Positions 1,697 through 61,634 of a stretch of 64,000 nucleotides of DNA are shown here, piece after piece. Within the stretch, counting starts at the first letter, position 1. Every line of letters begins with the position of its first letter. The translations under genes and the position numbers were made by a program. Origin of the DNA: Bdellovibrionales bacterium (GTDB lineage: Bacteria; Bdellovibrionota; Bdellovibrionia; Bdellovibrionales; UBA1609); contig JAYUKW010000031.1 in the NCBI GenBank assembly GCA_043764155.1, positions 71,439 through 135,438 on the forward strand, in the 5' to 3' direction. The notes beneath the pieces are model-generated. The model searched no databases. It was not told where the DNA came from and saw nothing but the letters and a program-made list of their open reading frames with translations.

Positions 1697-1759
1697 GAAC
1701 TGACTTAATTCTATAGATTGAAGCTTTGCAAGCTTCAATCTATAGAATTAGGTCAGTTC
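1697..1759. terminator. 63-nt hairpin (30-nt arms, 1 mismatch) with tip GAAGCTT-TGC-AAGCTTC
   Basis: gaactgacttaattctatagattgaagctt / aagcttcaatctatagaattaggtcagttc, read directly. It is downstream of ORF 1267-1596, and a second short stem CTGCTT/AAGCAG follows. Confidence 0.5.
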
Positions 1760-1827
1760 TGCTTTTGAAGCAGCTCTACCGATGACAAATCATCCGTTTT
1801 TTGATTAAAATAATTTTTGGAGAAAAA

Positions 1828-2274
1828 ATGAGTGATTTTAAATTAATTAATCTTACAGCTCTTTATTATAGCAAAATTGTAAAGTCCTTAAAATATTTAG
1901 AGTACAGCTATAACAGAACTTTAAAAATGCCATTAGATCCAATTTTAATGAATGATAGCGAGCTTGAAGCTTGGGATAGCTTCGCTTCTCGATTTGCCAG
2001 AAGTTCAGATATTTTTTTAAGTAAATTCTTAAAAGCGTATTTAATTAAAGACGATCCTGCCTTTGATGGTAGCTTTAAAGATACTCTGAACAGATCAGAA
2101 AAGCTGGGGTTGATAGAAAATGTAGAGACTTGGATGGAAATTAGACAACTAAGAAACGCTACTGTTCACGAATACAGTGACTCTGATTTAAAGATTATTT
2201 TTAGTAAATTCAGACAATTCACCCCACTCATTTTAGACTTAAGAACTAAACTCTCAAATGCGTCTCAATCTTAA
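1828..2274 (+). CDS. HEPN-domain protein, HepT-like (DUF86-type) putative toxin
   Basis: Rx4H motif followed by Y (LRNATVHEY). ATG at 1828 is preceded by GGAG; the track ORF starts at TTG 1801. Overlaps the downstream nucleotidyltransferase gene by 17 nt. Confidence 0.7.
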   Translation: MSDFKLINLTALYYSKIVKSLKYLEYSYNRTLKMPLDPILMNDSELEAWDSFASRFARSSDIFLSKFLKAYLIKDDPAFDGSFKDTLNRSEKLGLIENVETWMEIRQLRNATVHEYSDSDLKIIFSKFRQFTPLILDLRTKLSNASQS

Positions 2275-2566
2275 AGAAATCGCCATTATTCAGAAGGCCT
2301 TTAGAACTATTTTTCAGAAAAACAGTTTTAAACTTTATTTATTTGGCAGCAGAACAGACAATAACAAAAAAGGTGGAGATATAGATCTACTTGTTTTGGT
2401 TGATCAAAATGATAAACAAATATTTATTGATGGAAAAATAAAAATCTTAAAAGCAATTTTTGAAGATCTAGATGAACAAAAAATAGATATTACAGTAGTA
2501 ACTCATACAGAATTAAATTCAGACTTTTTTCTTAAAATCATTTCAAAATCTATGATAGAGCTTTGA
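2258..2566 (+). CDS. Minimal nucleotidyltransferase, MntA-like putative antitoxin
   Basis: Pol-beta NTase signature LFGSRTDNNKKGGDIDLLVLV (GS..., DxD). 102 aa. Confidence 0.75.
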   Translation: MRLNLKEIAIIQKAFRTIFQKNSFKLYLFGSRTDNNKKGGDIDLLVLVDQNDKQIFIDGKIKILKAIFEDLDEQKIDITVVTHTELNSDFFLKIISKSMIEL

Positions 2567-2641
2567 TTTCATCTATTTTTCAACCCCTGTATTTAAATTC
2601 AAACACAATGTGACCTAATTAATTTAAATTATTAAGACTTA

Positions 2642-3307
2642 ATGCCTGGTTTCAAAGGATTTGCTGGAATTAAATCCGTGGTCTGTTTTGCCTTAAGTCT
2701 GGCAGACCTGGGTCTTGATGTTGAACTCAGTTCAATTATGATAAATGTAATGCAAACATTAAAAGATAAAAAAATCAGATCAAAACCCTACTCTTTAAAT
2801 AAGAATAAATATTTGCTCGACTTTGAGTTTGATAAATTAAATCAGATTTTAACTAGCTTTGAAGATCAAGACATTAGAAATGTTTTAATACTTAAACTGG
2901 CACTATCAACAGGTGCTAGAGCAACCGAGCTTTTAAACATTAAGATTAATGATTTGGATATCAAATCTAAGTCAGTATTTATCTACGGTATTAAGGGCAG
3001 CAATGACCGAGAAATACCCCTTGAGACAAAGCTTTTTGTAAGCCTTCAAAAGTTTATTCAAACCGAAGGGAAAAGTGAACGGCTTTTTGAAATCTCGTAT
3101 CCCCGACTTGTACAAATTTGGCTTAACTATAGGCCTGTTCAAAAATCATTTCATGCCTTACGACATACGTTTGCCATACGTCTATACAAAAAAACTCGGG
3201 ATATACGTCTGCTTCAGTTTGCCTTAGGTCATAGAAATATCGCGAACACTATGATTTATGCTGACTATGTTTATTCTCAAGAGGAATTAAGACGACTTAT
3301 TCTTTAA
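2642..3307 (+). CDS. Tyrosine recombinase/integrase, catalytic domain only
   Basis: R-H-R-Y catalytic set: GARATEL, HALRHTF, LGHRN, MIYADY. The likely real start is ATG 2738 or 2750. There is no room for an N-terminal core-binding domain. Confidence 0.8.
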   Translation: MPGFKGFAGIKSVVCFALSLADLGLDVELSSIMINVMQTLKDKKIRSKPYSLNKNKYLLDFEFDKLNQILTSFEDQDIRNVLILKLALSTGARATELLNIKINDLDIKSKSVFIYGIKGSNDREIPLETKLFVSLQKFIQTEGKSERLFEISYPRLVQIWLNYRPVQKSFHALRHTFAIRLYKKTRDIRLLQFALGHRNIANTMIYADYVYSQEELRRLIL

Positions 3308-9897: not shown

Positions 9898-10021
9898 AAA
9901 AATTCGTGTCCCATTTGGCCCGCCAATTTTTTTCCTAAATAATTTCAGTAAAAAAGTTAATACCATTCTTCATTTTAATTAAGACTAAATATAAAGTTAT
10001 ATTTTTATTAACCAAGATGAA

Positions 10022-10333
10022 TCATGCGACTTCGTTTTTATTAATCCTATCTTCCGATAAGTTTGTACCACGAGGACGGACGTACACAATATAGAGGTTT
10101 TTGTCTTTAGGATTCTCACAGTAAAATATAGAGTTTCCTCTGTAAGTAAGTTTAAAAAACAAAGGATTTGTCTCTAAAATCGACCCAGATAAAGGGTTCG
10201 AAGTAAGGGCGTTTTCAACATAATCAATTAGCCCAACAACTGTTTCGATCGCCAACTCGAAAGTGAAATTTTCAGCGATATGCTCTCGAATTAAAATAAG
10301 ATCTTCTTCAGACTTAGGTGTCCACTTAAGCAT
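10022..10333 (-). CDS. ParE/RelE-family toxin
   Basis: MLKWTPKSEEDLILIREHIAENF... followed by YIVYVRPRG, which is ParE-like. The ATG at 10333 overlaps the antitoxin stop by 8 nt; the track ORF extends to 10357. Confidence 0.65.
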   Translation of the reverse strand: MLKWTPKSEEDLILIREHIAENFTFELAIETVVGLIDYVENALTSNPLSGSILETNPLFFKLTYRGNSIFYCENPKDKNLYIVYVRPRGTNLSEDRINKNEVA

Positions 10334-10610
10334 ATTTCTTACGAAGACCTTTCTCACTCTTTTTGAGTTTTGCTTTAAGGTCAGAAGTGCTTATGCCTTC
10401 GCCTCTTAGAGCTTGTGCATAACCAATTGCAAGGTTTTTATGAAGAGCAATTTCTTCATGCAGTTTGTGGATTTGGTCTGCAGGAACCATGGCAATCTCT
10501 GTTCCATTCTTGTGAGATATAATTTGAACTTCGCCAGAGACAACTTGGTCAAAAGTTTCAAAAAGCGTATTTCGTAATTCAGTAATAGTTTTTTTCTTTA
10601 AATTTGCCAT
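10326..10610 (-). CDS. Phd/YefM-family antitoxin
   Basis: MANLKKKTITELRNTLFETFDQVVSGEVQIISHKNGTEIAMVP is a typical Phd/YefM N-terminal domain. Likely start is ATG 10610; the track starts at 10646. Confidence 0.7.
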   Translation of the reverse strand: MANLKKKTITELRNTLFETFDQVVSGEVQIISHKNGTEIAMVPADQIHKLHEEIALHKNLAIGYAQALRGEGISTSDLKAKLKKSEKGLRKKYA

Positions 10611-10660
10611 ATGTACATCTTGGCGTACGTATAGCCCAAGTGTCAAGATTTTAATTTTTT

Positions 10661-11209
10661 CTAGCAGTTAGCCTCGTCGTATTTCTCGACAGCTTCTTCA
10701 AAAGCACTCGTTAGGTCCTTTGCTTTTCCCGCAGCTATAATTCTTTTTAGTTTGGCGATTGTGTCCGCTTTAAATCTTAAAGTCTTGGGTAGCCTAAGTT
10801 CTTTTGCTGGTTTTGTTCTTTTGTCTTTAAATTGCACATTGGCCCAATGTTTCATTTTTGCAAAAGTAATCCCTTCGAAGTCAGGTCCATTTTCCGCATT
10901 TTCTCGAATAGCTTTTAGTATGACTTGAATTTCCTTCGGCGTATTGTCGAGCCCTAAAAAGTTGGCCCGGTGGTGCATTATTGCTGCGGGGAGAACTTCT
11001 AAAATGCGAGGTTCGACATTTCGACCTGCCCATAACGCGTCTTTAAGTTCTATCTTAGCCCCCGTCCTTGCAGGAATGCTCAGGTTAGTTTGCAAGAGAC
11101 CTTTGGCCTTAAGCATTCCTATGGTCTTCTTAAAGCGTAAGTCCTTTCGATTGAGCTTATTTTGCTCTGCCTTTGCTTTTATTTTTTTAAGGAACTCATT
11201 TGTTTCCAT
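10661..11209 (-). CDS. Hypothetical protein with a C-terminal ribbon-helix-helix-like segment
   Basis: 182 aa. The C-terminal KTLRFKADTIAKLKRIIAAGKAKDLTSAFEEAVEKY has a strand-helix-helix pattern. Lies 2 nt downstream of ORF 11212-11703 and 14 nt upstream of the longest phd-like ORF (10646; 50 nt from its likely ATG at 10610). Confidence 0.45.
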   Translation of the reverse strand: METNEFLKKIKAKAEQNKLNRKDLRFKKTIGMLKAKGLLQTNLSIPARTGAKIELKDALWAGRNVEPRILEVLPAAIMHHRANFLGLDNTPKEIQVILKAIRENAENGPDFEGITFAKMKHWANVQFKDKRTKPAKELRLPKTLRFKADTIAKLKRIIAAGKAKDLTSAFEEAVEKYDEANC

Positions 11210-11211
11210 TT

Positions 11212-11703
11212 TTAATCTCCGAGAAAGTATTGGAGGTCGCCATTATTTTCCTGAATCCTTCTTACCAGATTTGGAAAACGCTCACTCGCTATTGCATCAA
11301 TAATCAAAATCTTATTTTTTTGTTTAGCTTTAACCGCCTTACTGACCAATGCAGATTCAGGATCAAGCAATTTCACCTGTACATATTTAGAATCCCAAAA
11401 CAGTTCAAAAGTGCTTCCTGGGGGAAGCCAAACAAGACCACTATCGCTATCTAGTTCTAAGTCATACTTAGGCAGGATTTCTTTCGTTAGAACCCTAGTT
11501 ACGAAGCCTTGGGTATTTGTAATGACTGCATCAAGATCATTAGTCATTTGGAGAGTTAGAATCGGAGCTACCATCTCGTTGGCCAAAAGTGTGATTTGGC
11601 CAAGAATGCGAACTTCAACCGAGCGGATCTTTGATTCACCGGACTGTTCTCGATCCACATTCTCTGCAGTGATTCGCTCATTTAACTCTTTAAAAATGGC
11701 CAT
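11212..11703 (-). CDS. Hypothetical protein, first gene of the four-gene operon
   Basis: Likely start MAIFKELNERI at 11703; the track ORF extends to 11784. A weak NTase-like TNDLDAVI segment is the only hint of function. Confidence 0.45.
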   Translation of the reverse strand: MAIFKELNERITAENVDREQSGESKIRSVEVRILGQITLLANEMVAPILTLQMTNDLDAVITNTQGFVTRVLTKEILPKYDLELDSDSGLVWLPPGSTFELFWDSKYVQVKLLDPESALVSKAVKAKQKNKILIIDAIASERFPNLVRRIQENNGDLQYFLGD

Positions 11704-11904
11704 AATTATCTCTTTCATCATATTTATAATATACAGTACGTACGGTATATTTGCAAATAATATTGAGCATTTAAGTTGTTTCAATTTGAGATAAAATATC
11801 TTAGTAAATCCAAGGGTTTAAAAGTCTAGTAAATTCATTGTGTTTTTAATCTCACATATGATTATTCATTTTGGTCGGGGAAATGTTGAGGATGTGTTTC
11901 TACC

Positions 11905-11937
11905 TTTTTTCCGCCAATTTAGATTTGGCGGAAAAAA
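11905..11937. terminator. Bidirectional rho-independent terminator-like hairpin
   Basis: TTTTTTCCGCCAA-tttagat-TTGGCGGAAAAAA. Perfect 13-nt arms including T6/A6 runs, in the gap between the minus-strand operon and ORF 12095. Confidence 0.6.
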
Positions 11938-12094
11938 GGATTTCAATACGAAGCATTATTTAAGATCTAATTTTAAGATCTAATTTCAAGCAAATAATAA
12001 CCTGTACATTGAACTCTCAATTTATCTTTCTCGATTATCTTTTCATTTTAAAAATTTCCTACTCAAGAACATAATATCAGGATAAAAATAAATT

Positions 12095-12589
12095 ATGAAA
12101 AAACTTTGGTCGTCTTTAAAATTGTTGATAGTTTTTGTTATTTTTATGGCCTTCGGGGCTATAGTTGTTGTGTATTACCCTTGGCTTTTTGGTAAAAATG
12201 TTAAGGGTGAAATCATTGAAGTTGAACGCGTAACCATGCCCAGCACTGTGATTGGTTCAGTGAACAAATTCCAGATGCATTCTTATGCTGTTTTAATTCA
12301 AGATGATAAAGGCGAGATGTTCACATCAAGTTCTGAAGACCGTCGATGGGAAGTGGCTAAAAAAGGGATGTGTGTAGTGTCCTTATTTTATCGTCATCCA
12401 CCATGGAGACTTCAATCAGCTGGGACATTTTATAATGCTAGAGTTCAAAAGATTTTTCGATGCCCGGGGAAAGACTATTCAACTGAAAGTAATTCTACCA
12501 AAGATAGTTTTAATGATAATTCGACAGATATAAATAATGATGAAGCCACTGTTGAATCTTCTAATAAACCTATAGAGGTTGAAAAATGA
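12095..12589 (+). CDS. Membrane-anchored hypothetical protein
   Basis: N-terminal TM helix [23 protein letters not shown]. Overlaps the glyA start by 4 nt. Confidence 0.5.
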
Positions 12590-13911: not shown

Positions 13912-14607
13912 TTAATTAGTAAGTGTGTCTTTTAATTTTTGTAGATCCGCATCTACAGGTTCTCCTAGCCAAACCGAAAAGACTTCTTTAATAAACCCTT
14001 TGTGGCCTACGATTTTTTGATTAATTCCTTTCATCATAAGATATAGTTCGTCTGAGTCTTTTAGACTTACGCCCACTAAATAAAAAGGTTCGTTTTTAAT
14101 GACTTTATTTTTTGCTATAACTTCAAAAAATTCAACTTGAGCTTTGGTTTCACCGTTGATGTTATTTTTTGAATAGGACATCAGCATAGCTTCTTTTAGT
14201 TTATCCCCAGAAAATGATCTTAAAGGTTTAAGTTTAATCGCAATGTAGTTTGAATTCGCAAGTTCTTGGGGATCGGTAGTTTTAGATTTGGAATCTTCAA
14301 AATACATTCTGGCCTCATATATATTAATAGAAAAGACAGCTACTTTTTTATGTCTAATGCCCTGATTTCGTCCAAAAAGTTTAACTTTACTTTCTTGCAC
14401 GATGACTTTGATGTCTTTGTTGTTTTTCTTTGATTTTTTTGGATTAGTTTTGTCTTTGACGATATCACTATTGGGTGTTGCAGGTGTCTGATCAAATGTG
14501 ATTTCAAGACTTGTTTCGTTGTCTTTAATCTCGAAACAAAATCCAATATTTGATATGAAAATAAAGACCATAACTGCACATATTTTATAAATATGAGAAC
14601 TCTTCAT
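13912..14607 (-). CDS. Secreted hypothetical protein (possibly a chalcone-isomerase-like fold)
   Basis: Signal peptide MKSSHIYKICAVMVFIFISNIGFC. The fold guess from VAVFSINIYEARMYF is weak. Confidence 0.45.
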   Translation of the reverse strand: MKSSHIYKICAVMVFIFISNIGFCFEIKDNETSLEITFDQTPATPNSDIVKDKTNPKKSKKNNKDIKVIVQESKVKLFGRNQGIRHKKVAVFSINIYEARMYFEDSKSKTTDPQELANSNYIAIKLKPLRSFSGDKLKEAMLMSYSKNNINGETKAQVEFFEVIAKNKVIKNEPFYLVGVSLKDSDELYLMMKGINQKIVGHKGFIKEVFSVWLGEPVDADLQKLKDTLTN

Positions 14608-14645
14608 AGATTACTCCATTAAAATCGTTTAAGCTTTAGTCTGAT

Positions 14646-15143
14646 ATGCACATGTTTAGAACTCAACAGCTTTTTATTTTGTTTATTGGCCTATCCCAGT
14701 GTGTACAGTCCTCGAATAGAAATATAATTGAGCCTCAGATCACTATGATGTCCGGTTGGGTGTCCCCTGTTGAACCCAATGTCACCTTGACCCAAAAATT
14801 TAGACCAAAGTACAACTCCAAACATAAGGGCGTCGATTTAGCCGGTAAAATGAACCAGCCTTTATTTGCCACTAATAGTGGTGTTGTAACCTATAAAGGC
14901 GACAAATTTAGAGGCTACGGTAAAATGATTTTACTTGAGCACAGCGAAGGCTGGACTTCGCTGTACTCACATCTATCAAAATTTAATGTCGATAACGGCG
15001 ATAAAGTTTATGCGGGACAAGTTATTGGATATATGGGACGAAGCGGACGCGCGTCTGGTGTGCATCTGCACTTTGAAGTTTATAAAAACAAAATCCCTAT
15101 AGATCCCCTAAGAGTCGTCCCAATCCGATACAAATTTAAGTAG
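14646..15143 (+). CDS. M23 (LytM-type) metallopeptidase
   Basis: HKGVDLAG and GVHLHFEV zinc-ligand motifs. Signal peptide present. Confidence 0.85.
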   Translation: MHMFRTQQLFILFIGLSQCVQSSNRNIIEPQITMMSGWVSPVEPNVTLTQKFRPKYNSKHKGVDLAGKMNQPLFATNSGVVTYKGDKFRGYGKMILLEHSEGWTSLYSHLSKFNVDNGDKVYAGQVIGYMGRSGRASGVHLHFEVYKNKIPIDPLRVVPIRYKFK

Positions 15144-15519
15144 TACTTATTTAGATCTTAATTATGACTTCAAATTTCAAAATAACTCTAAGTCTTTCCT
15201 TATAATTTTAATATAGGCGAAGCCTTGTCATTTGCCCTGCAGCTCGAGAACTCCAAAAAATATATTTTAATTTAAGATCCTTGAGATGATTTATAATAGG
15301 CTCGTTGGCATGAAGCCTTGCGGTTTTTTGCAAGGCAAATGACAAGGTCTGTCCTATTATAAATCATCTCAAGGATCTTAAATTAAAATATATTTTTTGG
15401 AGTTCTCGAGCAAGGCTTCGTGCCAACGAGCCTATATTAATATTATAAAGAAAGACTTAGAGTTATTTTGAAATTTGAAGTCATAATTAAGATCTAAATA
15501 AGTACTACTTAAATTTGTA
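15129..15519. repeat. Nested giant palindromic element (outer unit with a split core, plus a complete inner unit)
   Basis: Outer arms 15129-15217 / 15431-15519 (89 nt, 2 mismatches). Inner arms 15243-15300 / 15353-15410 (58 nt, perfect). Inner core 15301-15352. Outer half-cores 15218-15242 and 15411-15430. All verified base by base. Confidence 0.9.
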
Positions 15520-15541
15520 GGGGTAGGATCGTCTGTTTTTT

Positions 15542-16267
15542 TTATCCAACAAGAATGATGTGATTGTCTTTAGAGTTCACTTTCATGATGTCACTTCTAC
15601 GGATGCCTAGGTTAACGAAGTCGATTTGGGATTCCATGGATTCAAGTATTTTCATTTGATTATAAATTTTAGTTACTTCTTTTCTAATAAAATTTAAGAT
15701 CTGTGTTTTATATTTAGGTCTAAGTGCGACAAACTTGACGCTAAATGTTTCGCTTTCATTTTGACCATTTACGATACTTAACTTATCTATTCTTAAAATT
15801 TCTGCGGAGGCATTAAAAGATTTCATCTTAAGTTTTGAATGGTACGGAAAGTGAACTTTAATTTTATCCTTCATCATTAATTTACCAAAAGGAAGTTCGA
15901 TACGGGCTCCGCCGGCACTGAGCTGTTTACATTTACCTTGGATCACTTCCCCATTTTTAATGATCACAATTGAAGAGCTATCTAATTCAATACGAACATG
16001 AGATCTGATTTTCTGATGTTCAGATCTAGGGCTGTAAGTAGTCAAAAAGGCGTCTACTTCTTTTGAGTTAAAACATTCAAGCTCGGTCATTTTAACCCAA
16101 TCTGTATGCTCGTTGGTTCTAACGTACTGGTGACGAGTTAAACTCTTGGCTTGAAGCATTAAACATAATTCAGGATAACTGTAGGGCCCCAACCACCTTT
16201 GACCACATCTTAAATGCCATATTTGGCTTAAAAGCTTTATTTCGTGAGATGTTAAATAAACTTGCAT
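15542..16267 (-). CDS. GYF_2-domain plus PilZ-domain protein (putative c-di-GMP receptor)
   Basis: N-terminal WLGPYSYPELCLMLQAKSLTRHQYVRTNEHTDWVKM is GYF_2-like. PilZ motifs RSHVR (RxxxR) and QLSAGGA (D/NxSxxG-like). Confidence 0.7.
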   Translation of the reverse strand: MQVYLTSHEIKLLSQIWHLRCGQRWLGPYSYPELCLMLQAKSLTRHQYVRTNEHTDWVKMTELECFNSKEVDAFLTTYSPRSEHQKIRSHVRIELDSSSIVIIKNGEVIQGKCKQLSAGGARIELPFGKLMMKDKIKVHFPYHSKLKMKSFNASAEILRIDKLSIVNGQNESETFSVKFVALRPKYKTQILNFIRKEVTKIYNQMKILESMESQIDFVNLGIRRSDIMKVNSKDNHIILVG

Positions 16268-16451
16268 GGGCCTTTCCTATTACTAATTTTATCGGAAATT
16301 AGGGCTTTAGACTTAAGCCAGTTTCAAAATAAGACAGTTATAATTTACGCCAAGTGTCTTAAAGAGCCTTCGAGCTGTCGTTTGTTATTAATTTGTTGTT
16401 TAGAATAGCATTTTGGGTAGTCTTTATATGAACGGGCCCTTCAAGGAGAAC

Positions 16452-17418: not shown

Positions 17419-17494
17419 GCGGAGTTAGCTCAGTTGGTAGAGCACCAGCTCGACATGTTGGTGGTCATAGGTTCAAGTCCTATACTCCGCACCA
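17419..17494 (+). tRNA. tRNA-Val (anticodon GAC) with encoded CCA and an unusual C at position 33
   Basis: Hand-folded cloverleaf. Acceptor GCGGAGT/ACTCCGC, D arm GCTC/GAGC, anticodon stem CCAGC/GTTGG, loop TCGACAT, T arm ATAGG-TTCAAGT-CCTAT, A73, CCA. Confidence 0.85.
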
Positions 17495-26559: not shown

Positions 26560-26696
26560 GGAGAAAATATTAACATAAATATGTCTTAAGACCTAAGGTT
26601 ACTCGTATCAGAAAATCACACACCATTTCATAAAACTAAAGATCAGGGTCCTAAGAGCTCGAAACGAATAGATAATGACTCGGTGCCATTAAGATC

Positions 26697-26826
26697 AACC
26701 CCGAAAGGTGCCAGGTTCCGTTTGAGAATTAAAGCTGTTTATTTAGATTTAATAATTGATATATTCCCTTTTAGATCATTCTAAATTGATTTAATTCTCA
26801 AACGGAACCTGGCACCTTTCGGGGTT
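26697..26826. repeat. Perfect 37-nt inverted repeat with a 56-nt spacer (terminator-like or structured RNA)
   Basis: aaccccgaaaggtgccaggttccgtttgagaattaaa at 26697-26733 and its exact reverse complement at 26790-26826. Starts 9 nt past the RND gene stop. Confidence 0.85.
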
Positions 26827-26834
26827 CCGCTTGG

Positions 26835-32276: not shown

Positions 32277-32288
32277 TGTCGATAGCAG

Positions 32289-33583
32289 GCGATTCTGTCC
32301 CGTAGATTGTTAAGGGATTTTGTCTCGTGAGTATATTTAAGCAGCATTTAATTCATAAGGCGAGTGCTTATGAACTTTTTCTAGTTCTAAAGCTCGTCCA
32401 GCAAAAAATACTTTCGATGTATGATCCTTATAAAAACGTATTTCCACATCTTTTTTAGATAAATTTATTGGTGGATTTTTTATTAAAAATTTTTCTCCAC
32501 GCCAGCTTATCGTATGGTCAAGAGCAACTCGTCTTTGATACTTCATACAAAAAATTTCATTTAAATTTAAACCCTCAGGAACTTGTCTGTATGCAGATTC
32601 TTTTTTTATCGGCTTAACTGTATGTTTATTTTTCCATTCGGTCTGCATATAATTATTAAAAAACTTATTCGCATCTTCAACATTATTAATTTTTTGTAAC
32701 CTCATTTCTGCAACTAAACGGTCCTGCAAATAACCCCATAAGCGCTCTATTCTGCCTTTAGCCTGAGGACTATTGGCGCATATAACTTCGATCCCCAGCT
32801 CTTCACATGCCCTAGAGAATTGAGTAAAATCTTGCCGCTTTGTTCCCCCAAGCCAACCCGCACGATCTGTATAAATATATTTTGGTATTCCTTTTATCTT
32901 AATTATCTTTTCAACTACATCCATACAATTAATCGTGTCTTCAGTTTTATAAAACCCACCAAATGGTACATCACTTGTTGCATCGTCTATCGCCGCTATT
33001 AAAACTGTCGTTTCTCCTTTCCAAAACATGTGCTCACACCCGTCCATTTGAAGCATAAAGCCTTCGTTATGATGACGCTGACGGTGACTGTGTCCATTTG
33101 GCTTTCTGTGTTTACGGGTGCGCTTAACTAAATTCCATTCATGACACCATTTTCTAAAGGTGGAGTAACTAATATTTAAATTAATATCTAATTGAAGCTT
33201 TTCAAACATATGTAAAATATTAAAATCATAATACCTTCCAATCGCATATTGATAAGCTAAAGATTTTAACTCCGATGAGGATTTATTCACTGGCGCTTGC
33301 CCTTTGTTACCATGTAAAATTGCTGTTATGCCTTCCAGGCGAACTTGCGAAGCTATTCTTGAAATAGATCTCTCTGATAAATTTAAAAACAAGGCGCAGT
33401 CTTTACGACTTAAAGTGCCAGAAATAAACCTCTCAATACTGTCGATTTGATGTCGTTCTTTTGATGACAAACTAACTCCCATACCCTTTATTCCCCCAAA
33501 CTCACGTCTCACCTTGAAACACTACAAGACTAACGCACAGGGGAGGACAGAATCGGGTAACAATTTACACGGGACAGAATCGC
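32289..33583 (-). mobile_element. Insertion sequence (about 1.3 kb) with one rve-type DDE transposase
   Basis: Imperfect terminal inverted repeats GCGATTCTGTCCCGTAGATTGTTA (32289-) and TAACAATTTACACGGGACAGAATCGC (-33583). One transposase ORF inside. No clear target-site duplication seen. Confidence 0.75.
32337..33482 (-). CDS. DDE transposase (HTH plus integrase-core/rve domain); family unresolved, ISNCY- or IS481-like
   Basis: DGCEH..., IAAIDDATSD, YTDRAGW, ANSPQAKGRIERLWGYLQDRL. ATG 33482 follows AAAGGG; the track ORF extends to GTG 33512. Confidence 0.85.
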   Translation of the reverse strand: MGVSLSSKERHQIDSIERFISGTLSRKDCALFLNLSERSISRIASQVRLEGITAILHGNKGQAPVNKSSSELKSLAYQYAIGRYYDFNILHMFEKLQLDINLNISYSTFRKWCHEWNLVKRTRKHRKPNGHSHRQRHHNEGFMLQMDGCEHMFWKGETTVLIAAIDDATSDVPFGGFYKTEDTINCMDVVEKIIKIKGIPKYIYTDRAGWLGGTKRQDFTQFSRACEELGIEVICANSPQAKGRIERLWGYLQDRLVAEMRLQKINNVEDANKFFNNYMQTEWKNKHTVKPIKKESAYRQVPEGLNLNEIFCMKYQRRVALDHTISWRGEKFLIKNPPINLSKKDVEIRFYKDHTSKVFFAGRALELEKVHKHSPYELNAA

Positions 33584-35017: not shown

Positions 35018-35190
35018 TCTAAGAAAACCTCCAGTAGATTTATTTAAACTTAAAAGATATTTGATATTTAAAACAGGCGAGACCTTGTCATTTGCTTTGC
35101 AAAAAAATTGCAAAGCTGTATGCCAACGAGCCTGTTTTAAATATCAAATATCTTTTAAGTTTAAATAAATCTACTGGAGGTTTTCTTAGA
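35018..35190. repeat. Giant hairpin element, copy B (60-nt perfect arms plus 53-nt conserved core)
   Basis: Arms 35018-35077 / 35131-35190 are exact reverse complements. Core 35078-35130 is CGAGACCTTGTCATTTGCTTTGCAAAAAAATTGCAAAGCTGTATGCCAACGAG. The element ends 1 nt from the guaA stop. Confidence 0.9.
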
Positions 35191-58735: not shown

Positions 58736-61246
58736 TTGATTGATTTACTTCAAATAAATAATGAAGAGGAAAACATTAAATTGATTCAGAAATTAAAAAT
58801 CTATTTATTATTTTTTTTCTGGATCTTTTTTTCGAATCCTATCTTAGCACAAGAAAAACCAACTAAAAAATCTGCTTTTAAATCTGTAAATAAATCTACA
58901 GATCAACTTAAAAATAATCCGCCAGATAAACTAAAGGCTAAAATCTCTGATCCAGCTTCTAATAAACCAACTGACAAAATTAACGACATTATTTATCAAG
59001 CCGATGTCATTCAAGCCGATCTAGACACTGGTAAGGCCATTTTAAAAGGTAATGTTATTATTTATTTTGAGGGTTATAAATTAACAGCCCCAGAAGCCGA
59101 GATCATCAAAGCAGAATCTAGATTCACAGCCAAGGGCGGAGTAAAAATTGAAAACTTGATGACCCAAATGACAGCAGATCATGTTGAAATCTTTTTTGAT
59201 AACAACACTGGAATTTTAAAAAATGCCCGCATTGAGTCTGGACAAATGTTACTTGAAGCCAAAGAGATTCGAAAACTTGATAAAGATGTTTTTGAAGCGG
59301 ATAATTCTTATTTCACAACTTGCGTGACATGTCCCCCACTCTGGAGGTTTGGTGCCCGAAAAATTAAAGCCGATATCAACAAGTATGTGGATATCAGATG
59401 GGCTAATCTGCAAGCTGGAAAAATTCCGATTCTTTGGATTCCAAGATTAATATTACCTGTAAATACCAGAAGAAAAACGGGCTTACTGCCGCCGGCTCCT
59501 GTGTTTTCAACTTCAAGGGGTCAGTTCGGTTTAGAGCAAGGATATTTTTGGGCCATTGCAGACAATAAAGATCTCACGTTTACTCCAACTATTTATTCTA
59601 AGTCTGGCGTGAAATCTGTCTTTAATTATCGACACGTATTTGATTCTCAAAGTCGCGCTGAAATTAATTTTGGATATTTAAAAGACAATGATTTTGAAAC
59701 TTATGACTTCAACGATAATAAAGAAACAACCAGAATCTTGAACCGGTGGTTTATAGATTTTAAAAACCAACTTTACTTACCAAATAATTTTATTCAAAAA
59801 TCCAATATTAGACTTTTTAGTGATTTACTTTATCTTTCAGACTTTCCAAATGAAGTCCAAGGTCAAAGAGACGCCAATGTGGAAAATCAAATTTCTTTAA
59901 TTAAGAACGAAGGTAAAAACCACTTTTCATCAGAAATAGTTTACAATATAAATTTACTAACTGAAGATTTTAAATCCGATAATTTAAATGCAGTCCACAG
60001 AACTCCGCAACTTAGATATTCAAGACTGAATTCAATATTATTAAAAAACTTTAGATTTAGTTTTGATACCGAGTATAATAAATTTAGCCGAAAGGGTTTG
60101 TCTTTTGACAATGTTCAGCTTCCTACCTTTCCTGCAACAGAACTTCCTAACGGTTTACCTAAAGACATTTTAACTGCAGGCAATGGTACTTTTGACCCTT
60201 CTTCTGGATTAATCAGATCCGGACATAGACTTTTTGTTCAACCTAAAATAGTAGGCTCATTTAACTTAGGCAAAAATTTTATTTTATTACCAAAATTAAG
60301 TTTTAATCAGGCTCTCTATGCTTTCTCTCCAGAGTTTGATTCTGGTTTCGCGGCAAATACGGATAATCTTCCTTATTCGGAGTCAGCCAACAGATCTTAC
60401 ATTGAAAGCGAACTTGAAATTAAAACTAAATTTTCAAAAGTTTTAAATGAAAACTGGAAGCATATTATTGAGCCTTCCATGTCCTACATTTACGGTGATT
60501 TATTATATGAAACGGACCATTTATTTTTTCAAGGGCCTAAAGGCTTGCCCTACTACAGAAGATTTCAGCCAATTAATGACTTAGACTTTTTTGATTATAA
60601 TCATGGTATTCAATTCGATTACTATGACAGAATCGAAGACACTCAAATAGTAAAATTCAGCTTACTTCAAACTTTACTTAGAAAAGACAAGACTTCGGAT
60701 GTCAGTTATTACAGCCAACCTGTCTTTTTTGAATTGTCTCAAAACTATGATTATTTAAACGCGAGAACAGCTAACCCCGACGCCTGGTCTACATTAAATG
60801 CATTAGTTAAGATTAAAACAAAACACATTGAAACCTTCACTCAAGCCGCCCATTTTCATAAAATCAAAGAGACCAATATTTCTACAAGATCTAAATACAT
60901 TTTTAAATCTGGAAATTTTTTATCTGCAAGCTACAAGAAAAATAATTTAATCAGTCGAACAAATGAAGTGGAGCTTCAGCAAGAATTTTTTGGAGCGGGA
61001 TTAGGATTAAAACTCCCATCAATAAGTTTATCTGGGGAACTTTTGTATTCGACTTATGATGATGAAATCCAGCAATGGCAAATGCGTGTTGGATATTCGC
61101 CGCCAGGTGAGTGTCTTGATATTTTCTTTAATGTTTATGACAACATCGATCGTCGACAAGCCAATACACCAGATATTAAATTTCAAATCACTTGGAACTT
61201 TGGCCAAGGCAATGAACGCCCTGCCGACATCCAAGCCGTCTTTTAA
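58736..61246 (+). CDS. lptD: LPS-assembly outer-membrane protein LptD (OstA family)
   Basis: OstA-N-like segment (ADVIQADLDTGKAILKGNVIIYFEGYKLTA) and a large C-terminal beta-barrel. There is no ATG start: candidates are TTG 58736 or, more plausibly, TTG 58781 after GAGGA, which gives signal peptide IQKLKIYLLFFFWIFFSNPILA. Confidence 0.85.
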   Translation: MIDLLQINNEEENIKLIQKLKIYLLFFFWIFFSNPILAQEKPTKKSAFKSVNKSTDQLKNNPPDKLKAKISDPASNKPTDKINDIIYQADVIQADLDTGKAILKGNVIIYFEGYKLTAPEAEIIKAESRFTAKGGVKIENLMTQMTADHVEIFFDNNTGILKNARIESGQMLLEAKEIRKLDKDVFEADNSYFTTCVTCPPLWRFGARKIKADINKYVDIRWANLQAGKIPILWIPRLILPVNTRRKTGLLPPAPVFSTSRGQFGLEQGYFWAIADNKDLTFTPTIYSKSGVKSVFNYRHVFDSQSRAEINFGYLKDNDFETYDFNDNKETTRILNRWFIDFKNQLYLPNNFIQKSNIRLFSDLLYLSDFPNEVQGQRDANVENQISLIKNEGKNHFSSEIVYNINLLTEDFKSDNLNAVHRTPQLRYSRLNSILLKNFRFSFDTEYNKFSRKGLSFDNVQLPTFPATELPNGLPKDILTAGNGTFDPSSGLIRSGHRLFVQPKIVGSFNLGKNFILLPKLSFNQALYAFSPEFDSGFAANTDNLPYSESANRSYIESELEIKTKFSKVLNENWKHIIEPSMSYIYGDLLYETDHLFFQGPKGLPYYRRFQPINDLDFFDYNHGIQFDYYDRIEDTQIVKFSLLQTLLRKDKTSDVSYYSQPVFFELSQNYDYLNARTANPDAWSTLNALVKIKTKHIETFTQAAHFHKIKETNISTRSKYIFKSGNFLSASYKKNNLISRTNEVELQQEFFGAGLGLKLPSISLSGELLYSTYDDEIQQWQMRVGYSPPGECLDIFFNVYDNIDRRQANTPDIKFQITWNFGQGNERPADIQAVF

Positions 61247-61251
61247 TGCTT

Positions 61252-61394
61252 TAGATTAAGTTTTAACTTTATAAGTTATGTAATAAATAAACTAAGCGAA
61301 GCGAGTGTCACTCGCCTTGCAAAAAAACGGCAAGGCTTCGCGCCATCGAGCTTAGTTTTTTTATTACATAACTTAAAAGTTAAAACTTAATCTA
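61252..61394. repeat. Giant hairpin element, copy C (about 46-nt arms plus a diverged conserved core)
   Basis: Arms 61252-61297 / 61350-61394 (1 indel, 1 mismatch). Core GAAGCGAGTGTCACTCGCCTTGCAAAAAAACGGCAAGGCTTCGCGCCATCGA. Starts 6 nt after the lptD stop. Confidence 0.85.
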
Positions 61395-61634
61395 TAGAAT
61401 TAAAATCTACGTCTTATTATTAGTTAACTTAAGCCAAAACCGTCGGCTAATTTCTTTTGTATTTCTTTAAATCTATTTATCTTTAAAAGAACCCATGGTT
61501 TTGGACAAAGTTACTTCATTGTTCGTTACGAAGGAAAGATAAGGTAAAACAATATTGTTATTGCACTGATTAAATCTTTAGATCGAAGAGCGTTGTTTGG
61601 TTTTTTATTTTTACTAAATCTACTTTTAAAAACT

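Follow-up and report, generated by a model that had tools for sequence, protein, structure and literature searches.

The stretch of DNA analysed here (the window) comprises 64,000 nucleotides from a Bdellovibrionales bacterium and has a GC content of 35%. The best named relatives, judged by GuaA, are MAGs of the Bdellovibrionaceae or Bdellovibrionales, with 72% and ~61% identity. Between a convergent pair of genes that encode an M23 peptidase (plus strand, stop codon at 15141–15143) and a GYF/PilZ protein (minus strand, stop codon at 15542–15544), a block of 391 nt is found at 15129–15519 that consists of two inverted repeats, one inside the other (Table 1). The outer left arm begins within the peptidase gene, so that its first 15 nt (15129–15143, TACAAATTTAAGTAG) comprise the four final codons of that gene plus its stop codon, and the last 15 nt of the outer right arm (15505–15519) are a perfect inverted copy of this native 3′ end. 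The inner right arm (15353–15410) runs into CAAGGCTTCGTGCC in the window version.

Table 1. Parts of the nested block and other core-bearing elements in the window and in related genomes.
Feature	Position	Strand	Genome	Description
Outer left arm	15129–15217	.	window	89 nt
Outer type-1 core, left half	15218–15242	+	window	CGAAGCCTTGTCATTTGCCCTGCAG; ends in GCCCTGC, the 5′ strand of the apical stem
Inner left arm	15243–15300	.	window	58 nt; perfect complement of 15353–15410
Intact inner type-1 core	15301–15352	−	window	52 nt; opposite orientation to the other three window cores
Inner right arm	15353–15410	.	window	58 nt
Outer core, right half	15411–15430	+	window	CAAGGCTTCGTGCCAACGAG
Outer right arm	15431–15519	.	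window	89 nt; mismatches at 15441 and 15449
Element	35018–35190	+	window	61-nt perfect arms (35018–35078, 35130–35190); 51-nt type-1 core at 35079–35129
Element	61241–61405	+	window	52-nt type-1 core at 61298–61349; decayed arms of ~57 nt
Type-1 core	L003:6914–6974		MAG Bdellovibrionales JTS-AC215	51-nt arms, 100%
Type-1 core	L007:14433–14559		relative (PilZ and GuaA 84% identical)	70-nt arms, 1 mismatch
Type-2 core	L007:3316–3491 (= L014:16163–16338)		related genome	AGCTCGGATTnTAGTGnTCAGCG...GCTAnAAACGTATGA; one of a pair with 59-nt and 95-nt perfect arms
Type-2 core	L014:3418–3668		related genome	AGCTCGGATTnTAGTGnTCAGCG...GCTAnAAACGTATGA; one of a pair with 59-nt and 95-nt perfect arms

The first-pass annotation of this DNA had described outer arms of 89 nt with two mismatches, perfect inner arms of 58 nt and a 52-nt inner core in the opposite orientation, and each of these descriptions holds. 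In an ungapped comparison, 87 of the 89 positions of the outer arms matched (the two exceptions are 11 and 19 nt away from the core), as did all 59 positions compared for the inner arms. A repeat search returned the pairs 15129–15218/15430–15519 (90 nt, 98%) and 15242–15300/15353–15411 (59 nt, 100%), and a covariance model of the core (R1) matched the inner core at 15296–15357 on the minus strand with 78.7 bits. Folded as single-stranded DNA, the block reached −165 kcal/mol (z = −35 against shuffles). The anatomy of the block is real and far beyond chance. According to the same annotation, the two half-cores correspond to the intact cores at 35.1 kb and 61.3 kb and are separated at the apical loop. 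The former agrees with the results of a 21-mer probe and of the alignment; as to the latter, only the columns of the apical loop are missing when the halves are joined and aligned with the intact cores. Judged by the window sequence, the most economical reading is that one unit is nested in the apical loop of another, and such nesting is probable.

The core itself is a real repeat family that is palindromic, intergenic, lineage-specific and apparently undescribed. The window holds three intact type-1 cores and one split core, which a 21-nt core probe recovered as four matches against 0 expected (100 shuffles); these cores of one genome differ by roughly 15%, as counted from the alignments. Further copies, for which a search had been proposed at first pass, occur in this genome as well as in two related MAGs. 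The type-1 core is asymmetric and pairs imperfectly with itself. It comprises ~52 nt plus ~10–13 nt on each side, with a 7-bp apical stem, an A-rich loop of 7–9 nt and internal loops. The core alignment revealed compensatory changes in the apical stem (GCCTTGC/GCAAGGC, GCTTTGC/GCAAAGC and GAGTTGC/GCAACTC). A second, distantly similar core type (type 2) is carried by two elements of the relative with 84% identical PilZ and GuaA, and has only the GCTCG boundary motif and an ATGAC motif in common with type 1. The element at 35018–35190 is flanked by convergent genes and terminates 1 nt ahead of the guaA stop codon, while the one at 61241–61405, whose arms carry four mismatches and one indel, begins at the stop codon of an 836-aa gene and is identical in a second assembly (scaffold_1195, see below). 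In the element at L007:14291–14637 (L007b), the apical loop is enlarged by ~70 nt of non-palindromic sequence. Together with the outer core of the block, which is split exactly in its apical loop, this suggests insertion into hairpin tips and marks the apical loop as a recurrent insertion point. In the same L007 element, a 31-nt unit is repeated three times in tandem in the left arm and occurs once in the right arm.

A pattern scan of the genome contigs added one true copy (L003) and one chance match in a cas2 gene, and a scan of metagenome contigs gave two chance matches only; given the strictness of the patterns, cores as divergent as those of L007b and type 2 would escape them. In IMG/VR viral contigs, 96 pattern matches were obtained, of which none was confirmed by the covariance model. 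R1 found no type-1 cores beyond those known in the window, in the 10 kb upstream of it or in the relatives' loci. The first-pass remark that the core was not recognised as any described REP/MITE/Correia/ERIC-type element is in agreement with Rfam, where only a tRNA at 17419–17491 passed the gathering threshold in the whole window, and where the interval 15050–15600 at E ≤ 10 returned only sub-threshold models of miRNA precursors, which represent generic long hairpins. A literature search did not find such elements described in Bdellovibrio-like bacteria, and exact look-ups of guaA and of a 153-aa ORF returned no record.

All eight elements are situated just downstream of stop codons, and four of them lie between convergent genes. 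Such a position would suit a fixed functional hairpin that does not move, that is, a long dsRNA or DNA structure at gene 3′ ends of which the pairing is kept by selection and the arm sequence is free to drift. The roles considered are those of a terminator acting in both directions, of a hairpin that stabilises mRNA or is a substrate of RNase III, and of an apical motif bound by protein, and both the co-variation in the apical stem and the conservation of the core across genomes are in favour of this explanation. However, orthologous sites in relatives lack copies, and a pairing of 100% over 59–95 nt appears to be beyond the expected functional need. Moreover, a simple scan found no terminator-like stem followed by a T-run, although classic terminators exist in this genome, and neither the nested copy nor the inverted copy of coding DNA is explained. 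A fixed hairpin is regarded as improbable.

Several known signals were looked for in and around the core. An intrinsic terminator is a short G+C-rich stem-loop with a T-run directly behind it; no terminator-like site was found in a scan of 14600–16300, and the T/A-run of the type-1 core is located in the loop and not after the stem. Matches to sigma-70 promoters were at or below chance. The motif TGGC(A/G)(T/C)-N-TTGC occurs at 15305–15321, 35110–35126 (−) and 61330–61346 (−), i.e., in all type-1 cores and in one orientation, and resembles a sigma-54 promoter (TGGCAT-N-TTGC). The −24/−12 consensus of sigma-54 has a GG-to-GC spacing of 10 nt. Since this spacing is 11 nt in all copies, the motif is probably not a sigma-54 promoter. 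A lox- or dif-like site (inverted repeats of 7–13 bp with an 8-nt spacer) was also rejected, as the nested junctions carry no hybrid half-sites.

In contrast to the core, the arms are private to each copy. Every core lies exactly in the middle of a long palindrome, whose arms measure 51–95 nt (172 nt in the second assembly), and five of the eight arm pairs are 100% complementary, while two more have only one or two mismatches. An all-against-all comparison of the core elements and two core-less palindromes gave no significant similarity between the arms of different copies. The arm sequences had no other match in the ~190 kb of DNA compared and no similarity to the intergenic spacers of relatives; the right flank of the 15.1–15.5 kb block was marginally similar to the spacer of one relative (p about 0.03). 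Beyond the core, the copies have in common only the ~10–13 nt adjoining it (TTATAATAGG, TTAATATAGG, TTAAAACAGG). Arms that differ in sequence from one locus to the next are therefore no ordinary terminal inverted repeats, and the pattern of a conserved centre with private arms is the reverse of the REPIN and MITE architecture. The first-pass annotation had proposed that an element was inserted into the hairpin tip of another copy. The break in the apical loop is in line with this, but the "copy" has to be narrowed to the core with ~10–13 nt per side. Since the long arms are unrelated between copies, the block cannot be described as a simple insertion of one MITE into another.

The M23 gene provides information on how one pair of arms was made. 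The peptidase ends in RYKFK* in the window and in QYKSK*, HYKSK* or RYKTRR* in relatives, and its C-terminus is neither longer nor shorter than that of the two closest of them (YKFK* versus YKSK*). As the C-terminus is native, the 15 coding nt in the left arm are original, and hence the inverted copy at 15505–15519 was made in place. This 15-nt inverted end on the outer right arm points to templated snap-back copying.

These observations bear directly on the view that the elements are ordinary non-autonomous transposons of the MITE type, in which arms and core move jointly and the block is a MITE inserted in a MITE; the arms would then seem unique only through the existence of many small subfamilies of which few copies were sampled. 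Eight elements from three genomes with eight unrelated arm pairs, and an outer arm that holds native M23 coding sequence whose inverted copy must arise in place, speak against it. Clear direct target duplications were not seen either: the edges of the block offer only a possible 4-nt repeat, GTAG, and no consistent duplication was found at the other copies. On the other hand, presence and absence differ at orthologous sites, and a loop of 8 nt cannot have been the source of the 58-nt inner arms that occupy it, which a unit that travels with its arms would accommodate. The same genome also has a conventional family with shared terminal repeats (26697–26826 and L113:16912–17041). With the absence of a transposase from the window and its flanks added to the points against it, joint movement of arms and core is judged to be unlikely. 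The two members of this second palindromic family, the latter of which lies upstream of the window, lack a type-1 core and share the terminal repeat AAAGGTGCCAGGTTCCGTTTG, which is present on both arms; the copy in L113 is placed between convergent genes, beside a classic bidirectional terminator (AAAAAAAGGCGAAGATCATCTTCGCCTTTTT).

The evidence for movement comes from orthologous sites, which the first-pass annotation had suggested to align. The M23–PilZ gap is 398 nt in the window and 2, 32 or 73 nt in relatives, which indicates that the block is a lineage-specific insertion; the site was found to be empty, with no nested block, in five relatives' contigs. PilZ is 82–87% identical in these contigs, and with proteins that have diverged by 12–18%, the exact boundaries of the empty site cannot be drawn. 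The site downstream of guaA is empty in three relatives, and conversely, the site of a relative's element with 95-nt arms (L014c) is empty in the window. Thus, the mobility proposed at first pass is supported by presence and absence at the M23–PilZ site and two others, but not by a clear target-site duplication or a donor copy, and, as neither was found, it is inferred from presence and absence only. Neither transposase domains (~86 kb of the genome) nor RAYT or HUH domains turned up when ORFs of the window were scanned, nor were any listed in the precomputed Pfam annotation, and no donor copy or mobilising gene was found in the ~190 kb of relevant DNA. The earlier remark that no transposase, recombinase or RAYT-like gene is adjacent is consistent with these scans; a tyrosine recombinase lies 12 kb away.

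Two further intergenic sites are worth mentioning. A palindrome shared by descent was considered for the ACR_tran–dnaE spacer, where the window (26560–26834) and a relative (L007:3322–3564) both have long palindromes; their sequences are unrelated, which suggests independent gains just after the stop codon. The ACR_tran efflux-pump ORF of this relative extends three codons into the arm of the type-2 element (L007:3316–3491) owing to a 1-nt indel relative to the window. The rpiB–SHMT gap contains a palindromic element alone in the relative (L007:14255–14657), and in the window (9898–12585) ~2.7 kb with a PhdYeFM antitoxin pair and ORFs of unknown function. This intergenic site seems to be an insertion hotspot.

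A second assembly of the same strain is available from ENA (ERZ28573637, sample SAMN19433757), in which the relevant scaffolds are scaffold_15 (L001/L002) and scaffold_1195. Over 12.5 kb, scaffold_15 departs from the window nowhere but within 15129–15519, and scaffold_1195 is 100% identical over a further 11 kb that includes the 61.3-kb element. Over the ~23 kb compared, the difference is confined to the 15.1–15.5 kb block. Here, 15411–15430 of the window is replaced by the reverse complement of 15218–15242, and the two mismatches of the outer arms are gone. In other words, the right half-core and both mismatches have been exchanged for the mirror image of the left side. The ENA block thereby has 396 nt, with perfect arms of 172 nt around a single inner core and no right half-core, and leads from the end of the inner core (GGTCTGT) through the inner arm to CTGCAGGG. 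The case for nesting thus stands or falls with the choice between the two assemblies, since it rests on the 20 nt of the right half-core, which the ENA assembly does not contain. Elsewhere, the ENA assembly apparently breaks at window positions ~32277–32336, between the end of scaffold_15 and the start of scaffold_1195 according to coordinate arithmetic; an A9T5 run lies there beside a weak 23-nt inverted repeat, and the window contig reads through.

Perfect inverted repeats of 58 nt exceed commonly used assembler k-mer sizes, so that short k-mers cannot resolve the path through them. The nesting, or at least the split core, might accordingly be an artefact of a mis-resolved palindrome in a short-read metagenome, and the fact that two assemblies of one strain differ only here over ~23 kb is in keeping with this. 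However, the two versions are not equivalent in terms of k-mers. At k ≤ 59, every k-mer of the ENA version is present in the window version on either strand, whereas the window version has 58–96 private k-mers, including those that span the point where the inner arm meets the right half-core. The window version thus requires real reads with the right half-core, and would not be inventable from the ENA version. The ENA version, which has no k-mers of its own, could stem from the window's reads through palindromic mis-traversal or bubble popping, but it could equally be obtained in the cell by one snap-back template switch, as a real conversion product. In addition, the palindrome is internal to its contig and flanked by unique genes, and the architecture recurs in contig_2869, in a k141 MAG contig and at two other loci of the window, one of which is identical in both assemblies. 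An assembly artefact is considered very unlikely as the source of the nesting.

The second assembly also bears on the possibility that the locus is an inverton, of which the short core flips between long inverted repeats by means of a recombinase or RecA. An inverton would be expected to show both orientations in a population, an internal promoter and a recombinase nearby. Long perfect inverted repeats permit inversion in principle, and flipping would account both for an inner core that points the other way from the remaining three and for the disagreement between assemblies. Yet the assemblies do not differ by an inversion, as the orientation of the inner core is the same in both, and matches to promoters are no more frequent than chance predicts. 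At 2642–3307, a tyrosine recombinase of only 221 aa (PF00589) is encoded, but at a distance of 12 kb. Altogether, an inverton is extremely unlikely. A HepT-like/nucleotidyltransferase toxin–antitoxin pair is located at 1801–2566, ahead of the recombinase (2642–3307), and just upstream of this pair, at 1697–1759, there is another palindrome with 30-nt arms and a 3-nt loop. Palindrome, toxin–antitoxin pair and recombinase (1697–3307) may form a small integrated module.

The reading that we prefer, and hold with moderate confidence, is that of a lineage-specific family of hairpin repeats that insert into hairpin tips and whose arms are maintained by snap-back copying, with the nested block as one such case. 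The mechanism, i.e., tip insertion followed by snap-back copying, is pieced together from the arrangement of the copies. A core-bearing unit would insert into the single-stranded tip of a hairpin, typically just past a stop codon. During DNA synthesis, intrastrand snap-back template switching would then keep the arms perfect and lengthen them outward: the nascent strand would fold on the palindrome and copy its own other arm in the direction away from the loop. Such copying would erase mismatches between the arms and could continue into native flanking DNA, and because it runs outward, the central core would be left asymmetric. The block at 15.1–15.5 kb would represent a unit (inner arms and core) in the apical loop of a resident unit, and the ENA variant either the state after one more snap-back from the 58-nt inner arms or the same error made by an assembler. 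The mirror-image exchange in that variant is the outcome expected of a snap-back from these arms. Outward snap-back copying would explain the private but perfect arms, the asymmetric centre, the extension into the native flank and the ENA variant together. Any role in the cell, for instance as a hairpin at the 3′ ends of transcripts in the manner of REP elements, would be hypothetical.

Template-switch events have been reported to create perfect hairpins in one step (bioRxiv 10.1101/2023.04.19.537475). A process of this kind matches both the difference between the ENA and window versions and the inverted M23 end. The origin of the inner arms falls outside the snap-back model: they may have moved in along with the core, or the outer loop was already enlarged when the core arrived. 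The former predicts that arms are shared between copies, and no shared arms were seen. Furthermore, the perfection of the arms could reflect selection on the function of the hairpin and not a mutational mechanism.

Several known systems resemble the family in part. REP/REPIN sequences, which are mobilised by RAYT (TnpA-REP) transposases and have a conserved imperfect palindrome of 20–40 nt as their repeated unit, and BIME clusters are likewise short, intergenic, non-coding hairpin repeats that occur in many copies past the 3′ ends of genes, and both they and the type-1 elements are presumably handled as single-stranded hairpins. REPINs, however, have conserved arms and a variable loop, whereas the present elements have a conserved centre and unique arms, which are perfect over 51–172 nt; the DNA covered by the analysis contained no recognisable RAYT gene. 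Correia elements of Neisseria, ERIC, RUP and Nezha MITEs are non-autonomous palindromic intergenic elements of 100–400 nt. Bacterial MITEs show insertion polymorphism between relatives and occasional nesting, as is the case here, and the dispersal expected of MITEs was indeed observed (four cores in 64 kb, homologues in two MAGs and empty orthologous sites). The terminal inverted repeats that MITEs share are not shared by the type-1 elements, nor were the target duplications that MITEs carry clearly seen, a distinction that is drawn from general descriptions of these elements.

The quasi-palindrome template switching described by Ripley resembles the present case in that an imperfect inverted repeat becomes perfect in one step and a hairpin is extended by copying of an arm. 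It is sporadic and concerns short repeats, however, and is not known to maintain a dispersed family with a conserved core. The attC sites of integrons are recognised as folded single strands. They are imperfect palindromes that start from or extend over the upstream stop codon and have cassette-specific sequence, which is reminiscent of the elements described here, but attC sites conserve the outer R″/R′ boxes and occur in cassette arrays next to an intI gene, while the type-1 elements conserve the centre. An assignment to attC was rejected, as the arm ends have no R″ (RYYYAAC) or R′ (GTTRRRY) boxes and the neighbours (SHMT, guaA, dnaE, etc.) are housekeeping genes and not cassettes.

A bolder version of the preferred reading, which is unlikely, is that the core is a new kind of mobile DNA, namely a hairpin "seed" of ~75 nt that enters the single-stranded tips of hairpins, among them the loops of its own family, with arms that do not move along but are synthesised from the flanks by snap-back template switching. 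If this were true, each copy would build a unique, self-correcting palindrome that grows outward, and the two public assemblies may have caught one step of conversion in a natural population. On the practical side, a palindrome may be silently "perfected" by a metagenome assembler, as this locus suggests, where alone the two public versions differ. Bacteria do not normally maintain long perfect palindromes stably. If the arms arise and are corrected in place, this lineage would offer a natural system that generates, tolerates and extends long perfect palindromes in a bacterial chromosome. The family would then link template-switch mutagenesis with the spread of repeat elements, and repeat finders that require shared terminal repeats would overlook a class of elements.
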